DNA of 64,000 nucleotides from an uncultured archaeon. Lineage in GTDB: Archaea > Iainarchaeota > Iainarchaeia > Iainarchaeales > 1-14-0-10-31-34. Positions 55,878 through 62,082 of the stretch are shown in pieces. Where the stretch lies: assembly GCA_964608675.1 (NCBI GenBank), contig CAZSOZ010000001.1, forward strand, positions 221,272-285,271. The letters are read 5' to 3'. Within the stretch, counting starts at the first letter, position 1; every line of letters starts with the position of its first letter. The notes under the pieces were generated by a model. That model saw nothing but the letters and a program-made list of their open reading frames with translations, was not told where the DNA came from and did no database searches. The position numbers were made by a program, and so were the translations under genes.

Positions 55878-55995
55878 TTAATTAAAATTACTGCAAACCT
55901 GTTTTAATTCTTTTTTTTTGGCTGTCCAAAAAGCAGTTAGTTCGTCAATCAACGTTTGAATTCTTTTTTATTTATTTTTAAAGCAAAAATCAAAA

Positions 55996-58900
55996 ATGAA
56001 ATTAAATTTCCTTTTAATTTTAATTCTTTTGTTTTTGTTTTCTGGCTGTTCAGAGGAAAAACTTGAATACAAAAACGCGTGCCTTTCTCTGACTTCTTAT
56101 TCTTTTCAGGAAATTCCTGAATGCAGTTCTCAGGAAGACTGCTTTAAAGAAGTTGAAAAACACTTGTTTGATTTTAAGCAAACTTTTTCTTTTGAATCTT
56201 CTGATAAACTTCATTCTTATAAAAATAATCTTGCTTCTTCTTGGCTTTATTTTAATAAATCCCTTAAGCTGGTAAAGGAACTAAACCGTTTGTGTTATTC
56301 TGATGATTTTTCTTTTCTGCCGGAAAAAACCAATGAACTGGTTTTTTCTTTGGAAAAAGCATTTGAATTTTCAGATAAAGCAAGCCTTGATTCTTTTTCT
56401 TTTCTTTTAACAGAAAAAAATTTTCTGAACAAACAAAACATTGAATTAATTCCTGAAGAGCTTTTGTTTGATGATTTTATTTTATTTAATCACAATCTGA
56501 ATGAATTGTCTACTCCTGAAATATACAAGTCTTCTGGTTCTTATGTTTCAAAATATTTTAATGCTTCAGCAGAATTCAATGATTTTTCCTCTAAATTTGG
56601 TTTTTATTCTCTTTATTTGAATGAATTCACTTCCTCTGACTTAATTAATTTTTATCAAAAAGACGCTCTTGATTCAGTTAAATCAAATAAATTTTATGTT
56701 CCACTGATGAAAAAAACTTTTTCTTCGGTTTCTTCCTTTATTTTCGGCTTAAATGACTTAAAAAGAACTGTTTCTGTTCTTAATTCAATTCCTTCAAACA
56801 AACTGTTTTTTTTGTATGGAAATTTTGTTTCTCCAAAAAATTCTGTTGCATCAGAATTTTCTCTGCTCGTTAAAAAAGTTTCAGAGCACAAGTTGTCTTT
56901 AAATGAATCAAATAATTCTTTGGTTTTGGAAATTGAATCTGATTTTAATGAAATTTCTTTTAAGCTTGACGAGCTCTCTGTTTCTTCTGTAAGCAGATTT
57001 GATTCAAATATAACTTCTTTTCTTTTTGAGGAACTGAATGCTTCTTTTATTTCAGAAAACAAAAACGAAATTTTTTCTGCTGAAACTTTTGTTTTTGAAT
57101 CAAGAAAAAAGCTTTCACTGCTTAAATCAAAGTTCAATGAATTAAAAAGAAAGGATTCTTTTAATGAAATTTCTTTGGGAAAAAAATCTTCCCTGCTTAA
57201 GCAAATTAAAGCTGAAACTCTTTCCCTGAAAGAAGACATTGGTTTTTTTGCAGGAGCCTTTATTGATGAATTAATTGTTTTATGCAGTACAAAAACAGAA
57301 TTAATTTCTTCAGAATTAAACCAAAAAGATTTTTCTTCTTTTTCTTGGGAAATAACTTCTCTTGCCTCCAGAACTGCAGTAAAAATTGATTTATTTGAAG
57401 ATGCTTCAAAAGAACAAAAAATTATTTACTGTAAGGACACCATTCTCCTCAAAAAACAGCTTGATTCTGCTTTAGAAAACCAGGAAAAATTTCTTTTAAG
57501 TTCTTCTGAGTCCCTGAACGAATGCATTTCTTCCCTTGAAAAAATTTTTTATTCAAAAAATCTTTCAGTTTTTGTTGATTCTTTTTATTCCCTTAAATCC
57601 ATGCAAAAAAACAGGCTTCCTTTTTCTTATCTTTTGGATTCCTGTTCAGACCTCAAAAAAAGAATAACTGTTTACCTTTATTCTTATGATGAAGAAATAA
57701 TTCAGGCAAACGATTTTTACATCAAATCAGAAAAAATTTTATCAAATCTTTCCTTTTTATCAAAAATTTATCCCGAATTCTTTAATTCAGTCAAAACAAC
57801 CAATTTTATTTCTGATTTTGATGAAATTTCACTTGATTTTTCTTTAAAAAAACTTAAACCTGAATTTTTTCCTTTTTCTTCTGAAAAACTTTCTTTAATC
57901 AAAAAATTTAATCAAAAAATAAATTCTTTTTTTTCTTCTTCTTTTGGACAATTCCTTTCATTTAATTATTCAATAAAATCTTTTCCTTTAGAGCAGGCGG
58001 TTCTAGGAAAAACTTTTTTGGTTAAACAAAAAATCTTTTTTCCCAATCCTTTGAATGAACCAATTAACCTTGAATTCTCTTTTCTTTCTCCTTTTCTTTC
58101 TTCTGAAAATAAATTAATTCATTCATGCATTAAAGAGATAACTAAAAGCAAGTCTAATTCAAGAATTTTAGTTTCTTGTTTTCCTGAGGAAGGGCTTTTG
58201 TTTGAATCAGACAAAAATTTACTGCTTTCTTTTTTTGATTCTTTTCCTGAATTAATTGAAGCAAACCAGAATTCTGTTTTGTTTTCTAAATCCCTGAAAA
58301 TTGATTCTTTTTCACAAATTTCTTCTTTGAAGGCAGTTGTTCCTTTGGAATTTAATTCTGATAATGCTTTTGCTGTATTTAATTCACAGAAAATTCCTGT
58401 TGAAATAAAAGAAAAAAACGCGGTTTTTTATTTGGAGGAACTTAATTCAGAGCCTTTGATTGAATTATTTTTTTCTGTTTCCAAACCTGTTTCTTTTGAA
58501 TTTTCCGAGAAATCAAGAAAAAAACTTGATGAAAACACTTTTTTGGTTTTTTTTGATTTACAGTTAAAAAACAATCTGGCTTTTGATTTTGATTCAATTA
58601 AAATTTTTCTTCCTTTAAATGACTCTGATTCAATTCTTGAAGCAAAATTAACAGATTTTTCTTCTGAAATAAAAGTTTATTCTTTGGGAAAAAAATTTTT
58701 TTTTAAAACCTCTTTAAATAAACTTGAGTCAAAAAAATTTTTTCTTGAAATAAAAATAAAAGACTTTGATGAATACAAAAAATCATTGAAGAATTCTCTT
58801 TTATCTGAAATTTCATTGATTGAAGACCCTGTTTTCAGAAAAAATTTTCAGACAAAAATTAATTCTGCTGATTCCTTTGAAGAATTAATTGAATTAAATG

Positions 58901-59988
58901 CCAAACTTTCTTCTTTTCTGGAAGAAAAAAATTCTTTTATGAATTCAGAGTTTTTGTCTCTTAAGTCGTTGGTTGAAGAAAAAATTACAGGACTCAAAGA
59001 AACTGTTGCTTTTTTTGATTCAACAGGATTTTATTCTGAATCAAATGAATTAAAATCAAAAATTCTGAAAGCTGAATCTGATTTAATCAAAGCTGTTTCT
59101 GTTTCTAAAGAAAAAGGAACAGAACTGCTTCTTTCTGTTAATTCTTTTTTGGAGGAAGTTTCTGACAAAAACCTTGAAGCATTTCTTTTAAACAAAAGAA
59201 ACTTTGTTTTAGAAAAAACAGCGGGTTCAAATGAATTAATTGCTTTGCTGAACAGCAAAAAAATTTTTGACTTAAAGAACGCCCTGCTTGAACAAGACAC
59301 TAATTTTTTGTCTTTTTTTTCAAAAAAAGATTATTTTAATTCTGCTCTTTCTTTGAATTTAATGCAGTCTGATTCAAAAAAACTTCTTGAATTAATTTCC
59401 AAAGAAATCCAGCTTAAAAAACAAAAATTGAATGAAAAAAAAATTTTTTTCAAAGAAAAAAAGCAGTTAACTGAAATGCTTTTTTCTTCTCTTGAAAACG
59501 CTTTATCTGAAAGCAAATTTTATCTTTCTCCTATTTCAAAGTCAAGACTTAAATTTTTAAGAAATGAATTTGATTCAATTAATTTTTCTTTTAAGGACAG
59601 CAGTTCTCCTGAAAGCCTGCTTTCAGCTGAATTGCTTGCAGAACAATCAGACAAAGAATTAAATGCAATCCATGAAGAACTTTCTTTTTCTTTGAATAAA
59701 TTAAAAGAAGACGCAAAAGTTTTCTTGTTGTCTGCAAAAATTTCAGGAAAAAATATTTCTTCTGCACAAACTCTTTTTGAGGAAGGAAAATACATTGATT
59801 CAATTAATGCTTCTTTTTTTTCAGCTGAATCCTCTCCAACAGCTTTTGCTTTTCTTTCTTCTTTTGAAGTCCCTTTGCAGGTTTATCCTCTTCTTATTAT
59901 AATTCTTTTTGTTGCAGGAAAAAAATTTTTTATTAAAAAAAAGAAGAAAAGAAAGCCTAAAAAGAAACATTTAAAGAGTTTGGAATAA
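55996..59988 (+). CDS. Giant (1330 aa) low-complexity surface protein with an N-terminal lipoprotein-like signal, a C-terminal TM anchor and a poly-Lys tail.
   Basis: MKLNFLLILILLFLFSGC signal with Cys; the body is extremely Ser/Phe/Leu/Lys/Glu/Asn-rich and predicted helical; the C-terminus is PLQVYPLLIIILFVAGKKFFIKKKKKRKPKKKHLKSLE. Confidence 0.6.
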   Translation: MKLNFLLILILLFLFSGCSEEKLEYKNACLSLTSYSFQEIPECSSQEDCFKEVEKHLFDFKQTFSFESSDKLHSYKNNLASSWLYFNKSLKLVKELNRLCYSDDFSFLPEKTNELVFSLEKAFEFSDKASLDSFSFLLTEKNFLNKQNIELIPEELLFDDFILFNHNLNELSTPEIYKSSGSYVSKYFNASAEFNDFSSKFGFYSLYLNEFTSSDLINFYQKDALDSVKSNKFYVPLMKKTFSSVSSFIFGLNDLKRTVSVLNSIPSNKLFFLYGNFVSPKNSVASEFSLLVKKVSEHKLSLNESNNSLVLEIESDFNEISFKLDELSVSSVSRFDSNITSFLFEELNASFISENKNEIFSAETFVFESRKKLSLLKSKFNELKRKDSFNEISLGKKSSLLKQIKAETLSLKEDIGFFAGAFIDELIVLCSTKTELISSELNQKDFSSFSWEITSLASRTAVKIDLFEDASKEQKIIYCKDTILLKKQLDSALENQEKFLLSSSESLNECISSLEKIFYSKNLSVFVDSFYSLKSMQKNRLPFSYLLDSCSDLKKRITVYLYSYDEEIIQANDFYIKSEKILSNLSFLSKIYPEFFNSVKTTNFISDFDEISLDFSLKKLKPEFFPFSSEKLSLIKKFNQKINSFFSSSFGQFLSFNYSIKSFPLEQAVLGKTFLVKQKIFFPNPLNEPINLEFSFLSPFLSSENKLIHSCIKEITKSKSNSRILVSCFPEEGLLFESDKNLLLSFFDSFPELIEANQNSVLFSKSLKIDSFSQISSLKAVVPLEFNSDNAFAVFNSQKIPVEIKEKNAVFYLEELNSEPLIELFFSVSKPVSFEFSEKSRKKLDENTFLVFFDLQLKNNLAFDFDSIKIFLPLNDSDSILEAKLTDFSSEIKVYSLGKKFFFKTSLNKLESKKFFLEIKIKDFDEYKKSLKNSLLSEISLIEDPVFRKNFQTKINSADSFEELIELNAKLSSFLEEKNSFMNSEFLSLKSLVEEKITGLKETVAFFDSTGFYSESNELKSKILKAESDLIKAVSVSKEKGTELLLSVNSFLEEVSDKNLEAFLLNKRNFVLEKTAGSNELIALLNSKKIFDLKNALLEQDTNFLSFFSKKDYFNSALSLNLMQSDSKKLLELISKEIQLKKQKLNEKKIFFKEKKQLTEMLFSSLENALSESKFYLSPISKSRLKFLRNEFDSINFSFKDSSSPESLLSAELLAEQSDKELNAIHEELSFSLNKLKEDAKVFLLSAKISGKNISSAQTLFEEGKYIDSINASFFSAESSPTAFAFLSSFEVPLQVYPLLIIILFVAGKKFFIKKKKKRKPKKKHLKSLE

Positions 59989-60027: not shown

Positions 60028-60930
60028 GTGATGCCAGAAAAAAAGGATTTAAAGTACAGTATTATGGATAAAGCTTTGGGAGTAAAGCAGTCTGTTTCTA
60101 AATCAATTCCTTCTGTTCAATCCCTTAAAAAAAAACCTGTTTCAAAATCAAAGCCTGCTCCAAAGCCTGTAAAGAAATCTGTTCAAGAAAAAAACCATAG
60201 TTCTTTGATTGGAATTGCAGTTATTTTTTTGATTGTGGTTGTTGCATTAATTTTTGTTTTGGATGATTCTCTTGATTTAGATTTAGTTGATGCAGGAAAA
60301 GAAAATCAGCCTTCTTCTGCTGATGAAATTCCTGAAAACCAAGAAGAAATCAAACTTTCTTTTGATGAAAGATACACTGAATGTGCAAGCAAGCCTTTGG
60401 TTCAGCATAAAGATGAATGCCTTCAAAATCTTGCAGTTGAATTTAACAAAGAATTCTTGTGTGATGAATTAACTAATCTTGATTTAGAGAAATGCAGAAG
60501 GCTTGTCTGGAAAGCTAATGCAGTGGTTTCTTTGGAAATAGAAAAATGCAGTGAGCTTTTAACTGAATTAGATAAAATTGAATGCATTAAAGAAATTGCT
60601 TTATTGTCTTCTGATAAAACAATCTGCAGTAAAATAACTGAAGTGGTTTCTTCTGCTGATTTAACTCAGGTTAATTCATGTTATATTGCTTTGGCAGTTC
60701 AGGAAAAAGATTTGTCTGTTTGTGATTTAATTGAGGGAAGCATGAAGGACACCTGTAAATTTAATACTGCTGTTGTTATTTCTAATCCTGATTTATGCAT
60801 TGGATTTGAAGTTCCTACTATAAGAAATGACTGTATTGCAAGAATCGCAAAAAACTTGAATGATGTTTCTTTGTGCAACAGAATAAGCAGTTCAATTCAA
60901 AAAAATAAGTGCATTAAAGATTTATCTTAA
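60028..60930 (+). CDS. Membrane-anchored protein with a Lys/Pro-rich N-terminus, one TM and an extracellular domain of degenerate Cys-containing repeats.
   Basis: TM LIGIAVIFLIVVVALIFVL, then about 9 repeats of a roughly 20-aa unit with paired Cys (..C..L...L.K..C.K..). Confidence 0.45.
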   Translation: MMPEKKDLKYSIMDKALGVKQSVSKSIPSVQSLKKKPVSKSKPAPKPVKKSVQEKNHSSLIGIAVIFLIVVVALIFVLDDSLDLDLVDAGKENQPSSADEIPENQEEIKLSFDERYTECASKPLVQHKDECLQNLAVEFNKEFLCDELTNLDLEKCRRLVWKANAVVSLEIEKCSELLTELDKIECIKEIALLSSDKTICSKITEVVSSADLTQVNSCYIALAVQEKDLSVCDLIEGSMKDTCKFNTAVVISNPDLCIGFEVPTIRNDCIARIAKNLNDVSLCNRISSSIQKNKCIKDLS

Positions 60931-62082
60931 ATATAAATACAAGTAAATTGCTACTCCAAATAAAACAAAAAGCATTCCTGCAATTAATTCCTGTTTTATT
61001 TCTTCTTTTTCAAATATTATTTCAGTTTTTTCGCAGGAAACTTTTTTTCCTTCAAATTCCAGTGTGCATCCTAATTCAAATTTTCCTGCAGTGTTTGATT
61101 TAATTTTTGTTTTAAAGTAAACTATTTGTTTTGGGTGAATTGACGCAAATTTTTTTTCATTTTTTTTTAATTCAATTCCCTTTCCTAAAACAGTTATTTT
61201 TGCATTATGCACTGTTTCAAGTGAATTGTTTATTATCACTATTTCTATTTCGCTTTCTTCTTTTATTTGATTTATTTGTTTTTTCAGCATAATTATTGGT
61301 TCAAGTTTTTTTTTGTATTCTTTTGGAAGTATTTCAGGATAATTTGATTTAATTGTTTTTTCTTCTTTGAATTCATTCAAATAAACTGCTACTGCATTCG
61401 GAAGAAGTCTTGTATTTGGGTTTTTCAGCCTGTAAGTGAATTCCAGTGAAATTTCTTTTCCTGCCTGAATTTCCCCTGAAAACGAACTTTTTCCTTTTAT
61501 TAATTCAATGTCTTTTCGTTCTTTGTCTCCGTCAGTTATTTTCACAAAAGTTGATTCATTTCCGTAATTTTTTAAAGTGGTTTTCACGTGTATTTCCTGT
61601 CCTACTACTAATTCTTTTGATACAACTTTTTTTGTAAAACTGCCTTCAGGAAAAAAAGCAGTCTTATAATTTCCTATTATTGAATCATTGTAAACATTTA
61701 TTTTTGGAATGGAATCAGATGAATTTCCGCATATTCTGAGTTCATTTTTTGTTTTTAATTCTTCTTTTTTTAGTGTTATTCTTTGAAATTCGTTTCCTGT
61801 TCCTGATTCAATAATTGAAATCAGTTTATTATTTAATTCAACTGTAATGTTTGCGTCTCCTTTAATGTTTGGAGTAAAAGTATAATGCACTGAAATAATA
61901 GTGAATTCCTCTGAATTAAATTCATCATAAAAAATTATTTTCATGCATTCCTGTGCGTTAGCTTCATGTATTTTAAGTTCTTCTTCATAGCCTATCGAAA
62001 AAAAAGTTTTTTCTTTTATTGTTTCTCCGCTGACTATTCCTGTTAAAAGCACAGCAAGAATTACAAGCATTTTTTTGTTCAT
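60922..62082 (-). CDS. Secreted surface protein with a C-terminal TM anchor.
   Basis: N-terminal signal MNKKMLVILAVLLTGIVSG and C-terminal LIAGMLFVLFGVAIYLYLYLR. Confidence 0.4.
   Translation of the reverse strand: MNKKMLVILAVLLTGIVSGETIKEKTFFSIGYEEELKIHEANAQECMKIIFYDEFNSEEFTIISVHYTFTPNIKGDANITVELNNKLISIIESGTGNEFQRITLKKEELKTKNELRICGNSSDSIPKINVYNDSIIGNYKTAFFPEGSFTKKVVSKELVVGQEIHVKTTLKNYGNESTFVKITDGDKERKDIELIKGKSSFSGEIQAGKEISLEFTYRLKNPNTRLLPNAVAVYLNEFKEEKTIKSNYPEILPKEYKKKLEPIIMLKKQINQIKEESEIEIVIINNSLETVHNAKITVLGKGIELKKNEKKFASIHPKQIVYFKTKIKSNTAGKFELGCTLEFEGKKVSCEKTEIIFEKEEIKQELIAGMLFVLFGVAIYLYLYLR

Follow-up and report, generated by a model that had tools for sequence, protein, structure and literature searches.

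A phylum-wide orphan family of putatively doubly anchored envelope proteins in Iainarchaeota

The locus and its neighbours

The stretch of DNA analysed here (64,000 nucleotides, referred to below as the window) contains a complete open reading frame of 1330 amino acids on the forward strand, the largest of the window as the earlier note had stated, the runner-up being 923 aa long. Its product begins with MKLNFLLILILLFLFSGC and ends with ...PLQVYPLLIIILFVAGKKFFIKKKKKRKPKKKHLKSLE. The features discussed below are as follows.

55966..55983, + strand: A/T-rich stretch resembling a TATA box, ttttatttatttttaaag, some 22 nt before the ATG, read off the sequence
55996..59988, + strand: complete ORF, 1330 aa plus stop, window representative and founder of an orphan family found across Iainarchaeota
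55996..56049, + strand: signal peptide with lipobox, aa 1-18 (...LFSG-C18), Cys18 being the predicted lipidated first mature residue
56050..56520, + strand: most conserved module, aa 19-175, from the column information profile (alignment A5) and the invariant columns
56050..57963, + strand: N-terminal all-alpha region, aa 19-656, antiparallel helical bundles, with a second set of invariant cysteines (C430, C479, C510, C550)
57970..58758, + strand: beta-sandwich module, aa 659-921, from AF2 models
58765..59817, + strand: helical bundles of the C-terminal part, aa 924-1274, whose helices reach 58 residues
59875..59931, + strand: C-terminal transmembrane (TM) helix, aa 1294-1312, from hydropathy and an AF2 helix
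59932..59985, + strand: basic tail, predicted to be cytoplasmic, aa 1313-1330, IKKKKKRKPKKKHLKSLE
60028..60930, + strand: protein of 300 aa, Lys-rich at the N-terminus, with one TM segment and a Cys-rich ectodomain
60922..62082, - strand: conserved, convergently oriented type I membrane protein of 386 aa, with signal peptide, Ig-like/CARDB/TRAP_beta-like beta-sandwiches (weak Pfam matches) and a C-terminal TM segment

The ORF is a real gene. The probability of encountering no stop over 1330 codons at the given base composition is about 1.3e-42, and the reading frame is maintained in relatives at 16-61% identity, which disposes of the proviso that the ORF might be an artefact of strand bias with an unconserved frame. 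There is no Shine-Dalgarno motif in the sequence ahead of the ORF, and the TATA-like element is possibly the archaeal promoter of a leaderless transcript.

The composition of the protein (S 15.5, L 14.2, K 11.9, F 10.9, E 9.3 and N 6.6%) agrees with an earlier description of a body dominated by these six residues; compared to the other listed ORFs of at least 150 aa in the window, Ser is 2.4-fold and Phe 2.0-fold up, and Gly is 4-fold down. The richness in Ser and Phe is specific to the lineage and no trait of the family as a whole, as seen for instance in the homologue P0143 (S 3.1%, F 4.8%). On the other hand, the label "low-complexity" does not hold, as the SEG-like low-complexity fraction is 9%, within the range of ordinary window proteins, no internal repeats come up by BLAST, and AF2 gives confident models. 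Sequence searches against Pfam, NCBIfam and PDB gave no match, and the invariant residues of the family are cysteines only, i.e. there is no enzymatic signature, in agreement with what had been noted from the sequence. N-glycosylation sequons number 13 against 15.4 expected and thus show no enrichment, in contrast to many archaeal envelope glycoproteins.

The gene order GGR-NFACT_N-PRC-AMMECR1-gene-386aa-AAA_18 is kept phylum-wide, also where members share no more than 18-21% identity with the window protein; one locus, L012, has no AMMECR1. The GC content of the syntenic block is ordinary. The gene thus lies in a housekeeping block and not in a cell-contact island, such as had been suspected downstream of it. 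Orthologues of the 386-aa protein (26-68% identity) adjoin the large gene in L001, L002, L004, L006, L008, L009, L010, L012 and L013, the P0178/P0014 pair has neighbouring locus tags, and L003 is devoid of this neighbour. The 386-aa Ig-like membrane protein is a possible partner of the 1330-aa protein; synteny with housekeeping genes is in itself no proof of a functional tie to this neighbour. The 300-aa gene, whose product has no family match, sits between the two only in the subclade of the window (L001, L002, L006, L008 and L009; tblastn).

Family, conservation and ectodomain architecture

A word-indexed search retrieved 12 homologues, and an exhaustive profile search 221 clusters (at 50% identity), 171 of them at E<=1e-30. 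Among the 150 clusters listed, most members are 1200-1430 aa long and collinear, the remainder being shorter and partly truncated. Members that carry a phylum name belong nearly all to Ca. Diapherotrites/Iainarchaeum, the exception being one protein and locus labelled Micrarchaeota, and all are annotated as hypothetical. No paralogue was found within the window. The family is apparently universal in, and apparently limited to, the phylum Iainarchaeota, and the gene is apparently inherited vertically. This agrees with the DPANN affiliation implied by the earlier note, Iainarchaeota/Diapherotrites being a DPANN phylum of tiny archaea. The epithet "giant surface protein" fits less well. The giant surface proteins of DPANN and CPR reach several thousand residues, and they are often repetitive or variable and lie in accessory regions, whereas the present protein, below "giant" by DPANN standards, is repeat-free by BLAST and encoded by a syntenic core gene. 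We regard it as a new family of a familiar general kind.

The conservation of residues was followed in an alignment of 49 diverse members whose identity ranges from 53 down to 16%. Nine columns are invariant and all nine are cysteines: C18, then C29, C43, C49 and C100, and finally the second set listed above. This odd number leaves Cys18 without a partner; the remaining eight probably pair up as four disulfides. The first group after Cys18 lies in the most conserved module, which follows the lipobox directly and is further marked by the motifs IP.C, KN..A.SW.Y.NK and KEE.LF.

The AF2 models, for which the two halves of the protein were predicted separately (pLDDT about 80), begin with the signal peptide. 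Antiparallel helical bundles take up the next 640 aa or so and give way to a beta-sandwich of about 260 aa; helical bundles then resume for some 350 aa, and the TM helix and the basic tail complete the protein. According to these models the ectodomain of about 1270 aa is folded, with about 75% of it in alpha-helical bundles, so the picture of an extended helical fibre has to be given up in favour of bundles plus a beta-sandwich module. The latter has only weak Foldseek matches (mu-homology and M1-aminopeptidase N-domains, TM <=0.37) and contains a subclade-specific cysteine pair, C712/C728. Two short natural variants, P0008 and P0009, which are the closest relatives of the window protein, are about 400 aa shorter, most of the beta module (from about aa 745) and part of the C-terminal rod being gone. 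Such a loss suggests that the dimensions of the protein are loosely constrained, which one would not expect of a ruler or spacer.

The two ends of the protein

Hydropathy reveals only two hydrophobic segments, at residues 1-23 and at about 1285-1314. The first is a canonical signal peptide, MK-LNFLLILILLFLF-SGC, in which a basic n-region and a hydrophobic h-region precede the lipobox. Judged against the general pattern [LVI][ASTVI][GAS]C, the 1330-aa protein carries a lipobox; the family as a whole follows [LF][SFAL][GA]C, whose F at -3 or -2 deviates slightly from what is usual in bacteria. Of the 49 members, 41 have L or F at -3 and 44 have S, F, A or L at -2; position -1 is G in 42 and A in 7, and the +1 cysteine is present in all 49. 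This invariance in so diverse a set supports the earlier reading of a surface protein with a lipobox-like cysteine in its signal peptide. The same ...GC motif occurs in two further secreted ORFs of the window. DPANN archaea are reported to be rich in lipoproteins, and AliA to be prevalent among them "with some gaps" (PMC12462473). The features resemble those of archaeal lipobox lipoproteins that depend on AliA/AliB, arCOG02177/02178, as studied in the Haloferax model (PMC12462473), namely the canonical n-h-lipobox layout of the signal peptide and a +1 cysteine that never varies. However, the archaeal examples known so far are mostly solute-binding or redox proteins that are held by lipid only, whereas the Iainarchaeota protein has 1330 residues and a C-terminal TM helix in addition.

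This helix is present in nearly all full-length members, and hydropathy, AF2 and the family alignment all agree with the earlier description of a lone hydrophobic helix followed by a basic tail. A proline at its outer end, P1298, is found in 46/49 members and P1293 in 32/49. The poly-Lys run of the tail is confined to the subclade of the window protein. In the family, the tail extends by a median of 24 aa (range 17-40) past a hydrophobic core of 17 aa and has a median net charge of +5, acidic residues included. The 49 termini that were read show a basic tail with terminal motifs conserved within clades, e.g. ..W[ED][ED] or ..[RK]hQ[KR]h[LI][RK]. From clade to clade the tail is short and poorly conserved.

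At first sight, the C-terminus looks like the tripartite signals of archaeosortase substrates (PGF-CTERM, VPXXXP-CTERM, PIP-CTERM), as a proline motif, hP[LI], opens a TM helix that is followed by basic residues. One could therefore imagine a new archaeosortase-type sorting signal, in which TM helix and tail are cleaved off and the protein is re-anchored to lipid, and the locus of a distant member, L003, does carry a 165-aa gene of the exosortase/archaeosortase family 7 kb away (TIGR04178, 35.9 bits, ArtD/ArtE-like). Several findings speak against this. Firstly, the recognised motifs (PGF, PEF, PIP, VPXXXP, PEP and so on) are absent from the TM start, as is LPXTG, which had already been remarked; the actual motif is [LV]P-x4-P, not VPXXXP, with P1298 alone near-invariant, and a proline that opens a TM helix is commonplace. 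NCBIfam, which should contain the TIGR sorting-signal models, matched neither the full protein nor its last 95 aa, even at E<=10. Secondly, the protein does not stop at a short basic cluster immediately behind the helix: the tail is long, of mixed charge and partly acidic, and its clade-conserved terminal motifs indicate that it is retained and functional. Thirdly, no other ORF of the window was found to share the terminus, tblastn and an ORF survey detected neither an archaeosortase nor an unassigned multi-pass membrane ORF in the 64 kb analysed out of the 364-kb contig, and no archaeosortase was found in 12 loci besides L003. The search for such an enzyme that had been proposed at the outset is therefore negative for the window, and we consider the sortase/archaeosortase-type interpretation of the terminus highly improbable.

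Possible roles in the cell envelope

With both a lipid anchor at the N-terminus and a retained TM helix at the C-terminus, the two ends of the protein would be tied to the membrane. We tentatively favour, with a probability of roughly 45%, a structural envelope protein of Iainarchaeota, i.e. a lipid- and TM-anchored strut or S-layer-supporting scaffold. In this model the protein would be exported, Cys18 would be lipid-modified by an archaeal lipoprotein pathway of the AliA/AliB type with removal of the signal peptide, and disulfides between the eight other invariant cysteines would staple the helical bundles. The C-terminal helix would remain embedded in the membrane and its basic tail would face the cytoplasm, as the positive-inside rule predicts, and the ectodomain, fixed at both ends, would form a long loop or arch between membrane and S-layer. 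It would then most probably act as a strut, spacer or anchoring scaffold of the envelope in the manner of a SlaB stalk, perhaps together with the 386-aa Ig-like membrane protein, and the conserved cytoplasmic tail could offer a handle for an intracellular partner.

It is instructive to compare this architecture to the SlaB-type stalks of Sulfolobales and to tetrabrachion-like stalks. Shared features are Sec export, the combination of beta-sandwiches with long helices, and a C-terminal TM anchor, and the role would likewise be that of an envelope accessory and not of a lattice tile, with a span across the pseudo-periplasm that we infer for the Iainarchaeota protein. The differences are substantial, since SlaB is a parallel trimeric coiled coil, whereas the present protein carries a lipobox, is predicted to fold into antiparallel bundles, probably contains four disulfides, and has a cytoplasmic tail that is conserved. 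Searches of Pfam, NCBIfam and PDB and structure comparison gave no sequence or specific fold match to SlaB, so the likeness is a functional analogy only. Little is known experimentally on the envelopes of Iainarchaeota, or of most DPANN archaea. It is unusual for a protein to have a lipobox and also to keep a C-terminal TM helix; if confirmed, such double anchoring would represent a new way of building an archaeal pseudo-periplasm. The family, with its single syntenic position and clear topology, is a good phylum marker. It also lends itself to cryo-ET and proteomics on enrichment cultures and provides a test case for lipoprotein biogenesis in archaea beyond haloarchaea.

A role in cell-cell contact, in which a membrane-anchored rod would offer host or partner cells a surface to bind during episymbiotic attachment, seems unlikely to us, even though the DPANN lineage and the surface-protein-like divergence over the phylum (down to 16% identity) are in its favour. 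Among the closest structural matches to the helical bundles are host-binding proteins and surface antigens, namely the Plasmodium proteins PvRBP2b and PfRH5, Borrelia outer-surface lipoproteins (Osp/BBA), Streptococcus Fap1 (NR-alpha), BibA and CbpA, but only single bundles of 70-150 residues align, sequence similarity is lacking, and the analogues are variable host-binding factors, unlike the syntenic core gene of Iainarchaeota. The gene occurs once per locus, in housekeeping synteny and without expansion, island or mobile context. Moreover, conservation peaks in the membrane-proximal N-terminal module and not at the distal tip, and the beta module, presumably distal, is dispensable in P0008 and P0009. 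We stress that the present finding is no evidence for a host-contact island and should not be cited as such. As host-binding adhesins are among the best structural analogues, the fold would suit a binding role just as well.

Transmembrane coupling or signalling, with an ectodomain that senses or organises the envelope and a conserved cytoplasmic tail that recruits a partner inside the cell, e.g. from the division or cytoskeletal machinery, is improbable. The bacterial septation-ring regulator EzrA (PDB 4uxv/4uy3) appears among the structural matches, but this is generic spectrin-like-repeat similarity at 7-11% identity, i.e. an architectural analogy and not homology: EzrA is cytoplasmic, has an N-terminal TM segment only, and lacks disulfides and the beta module. 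The low conservation of the short tail between clades also argues against such a role, as does the placement of the PRC gene, which lies on the opposite strand with other genes between, in a block that is housekeeping synteny as a whole. A related and still more speculative idea, to which we give very little weight, is that of a phylum-defining envelope organiser, an arch of spectrin-like bundles pinned at both ends whose tail would couple envelope or S-layer architecture to the division or cytoskeletal machinery. It is in line with the conserved synteny with a CdpB-like PRC-barrel gene. If true, it would amount to an "outside-in" EzrA-like scaffold with no known archaeal counterpart.

Finally, a large, secreted, membrane-anchored and phylum-wide protein with beta-sandwich domains might itself be a lattice-forming S-layer protein with its own TM anchor, which we consider very doubtful. 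A survey found archaeal lattice-forming domains to be only Ig-like, beta-helix or MSTP-like beta-sandwich (preprint 10.1101/2024.05.28.596244), and such folds are not the majority in an ectodomain made up mostly of helical bundles. Neither the sequon count nor the deletion of the beta module in two close relatives fits a lattice tile, and the same survey assigned the S-layer protein of Iainarchaeota to a different, 1039-aa protein, A0A2G9N319 (preprint 10.1101/2024.05.28.596244).

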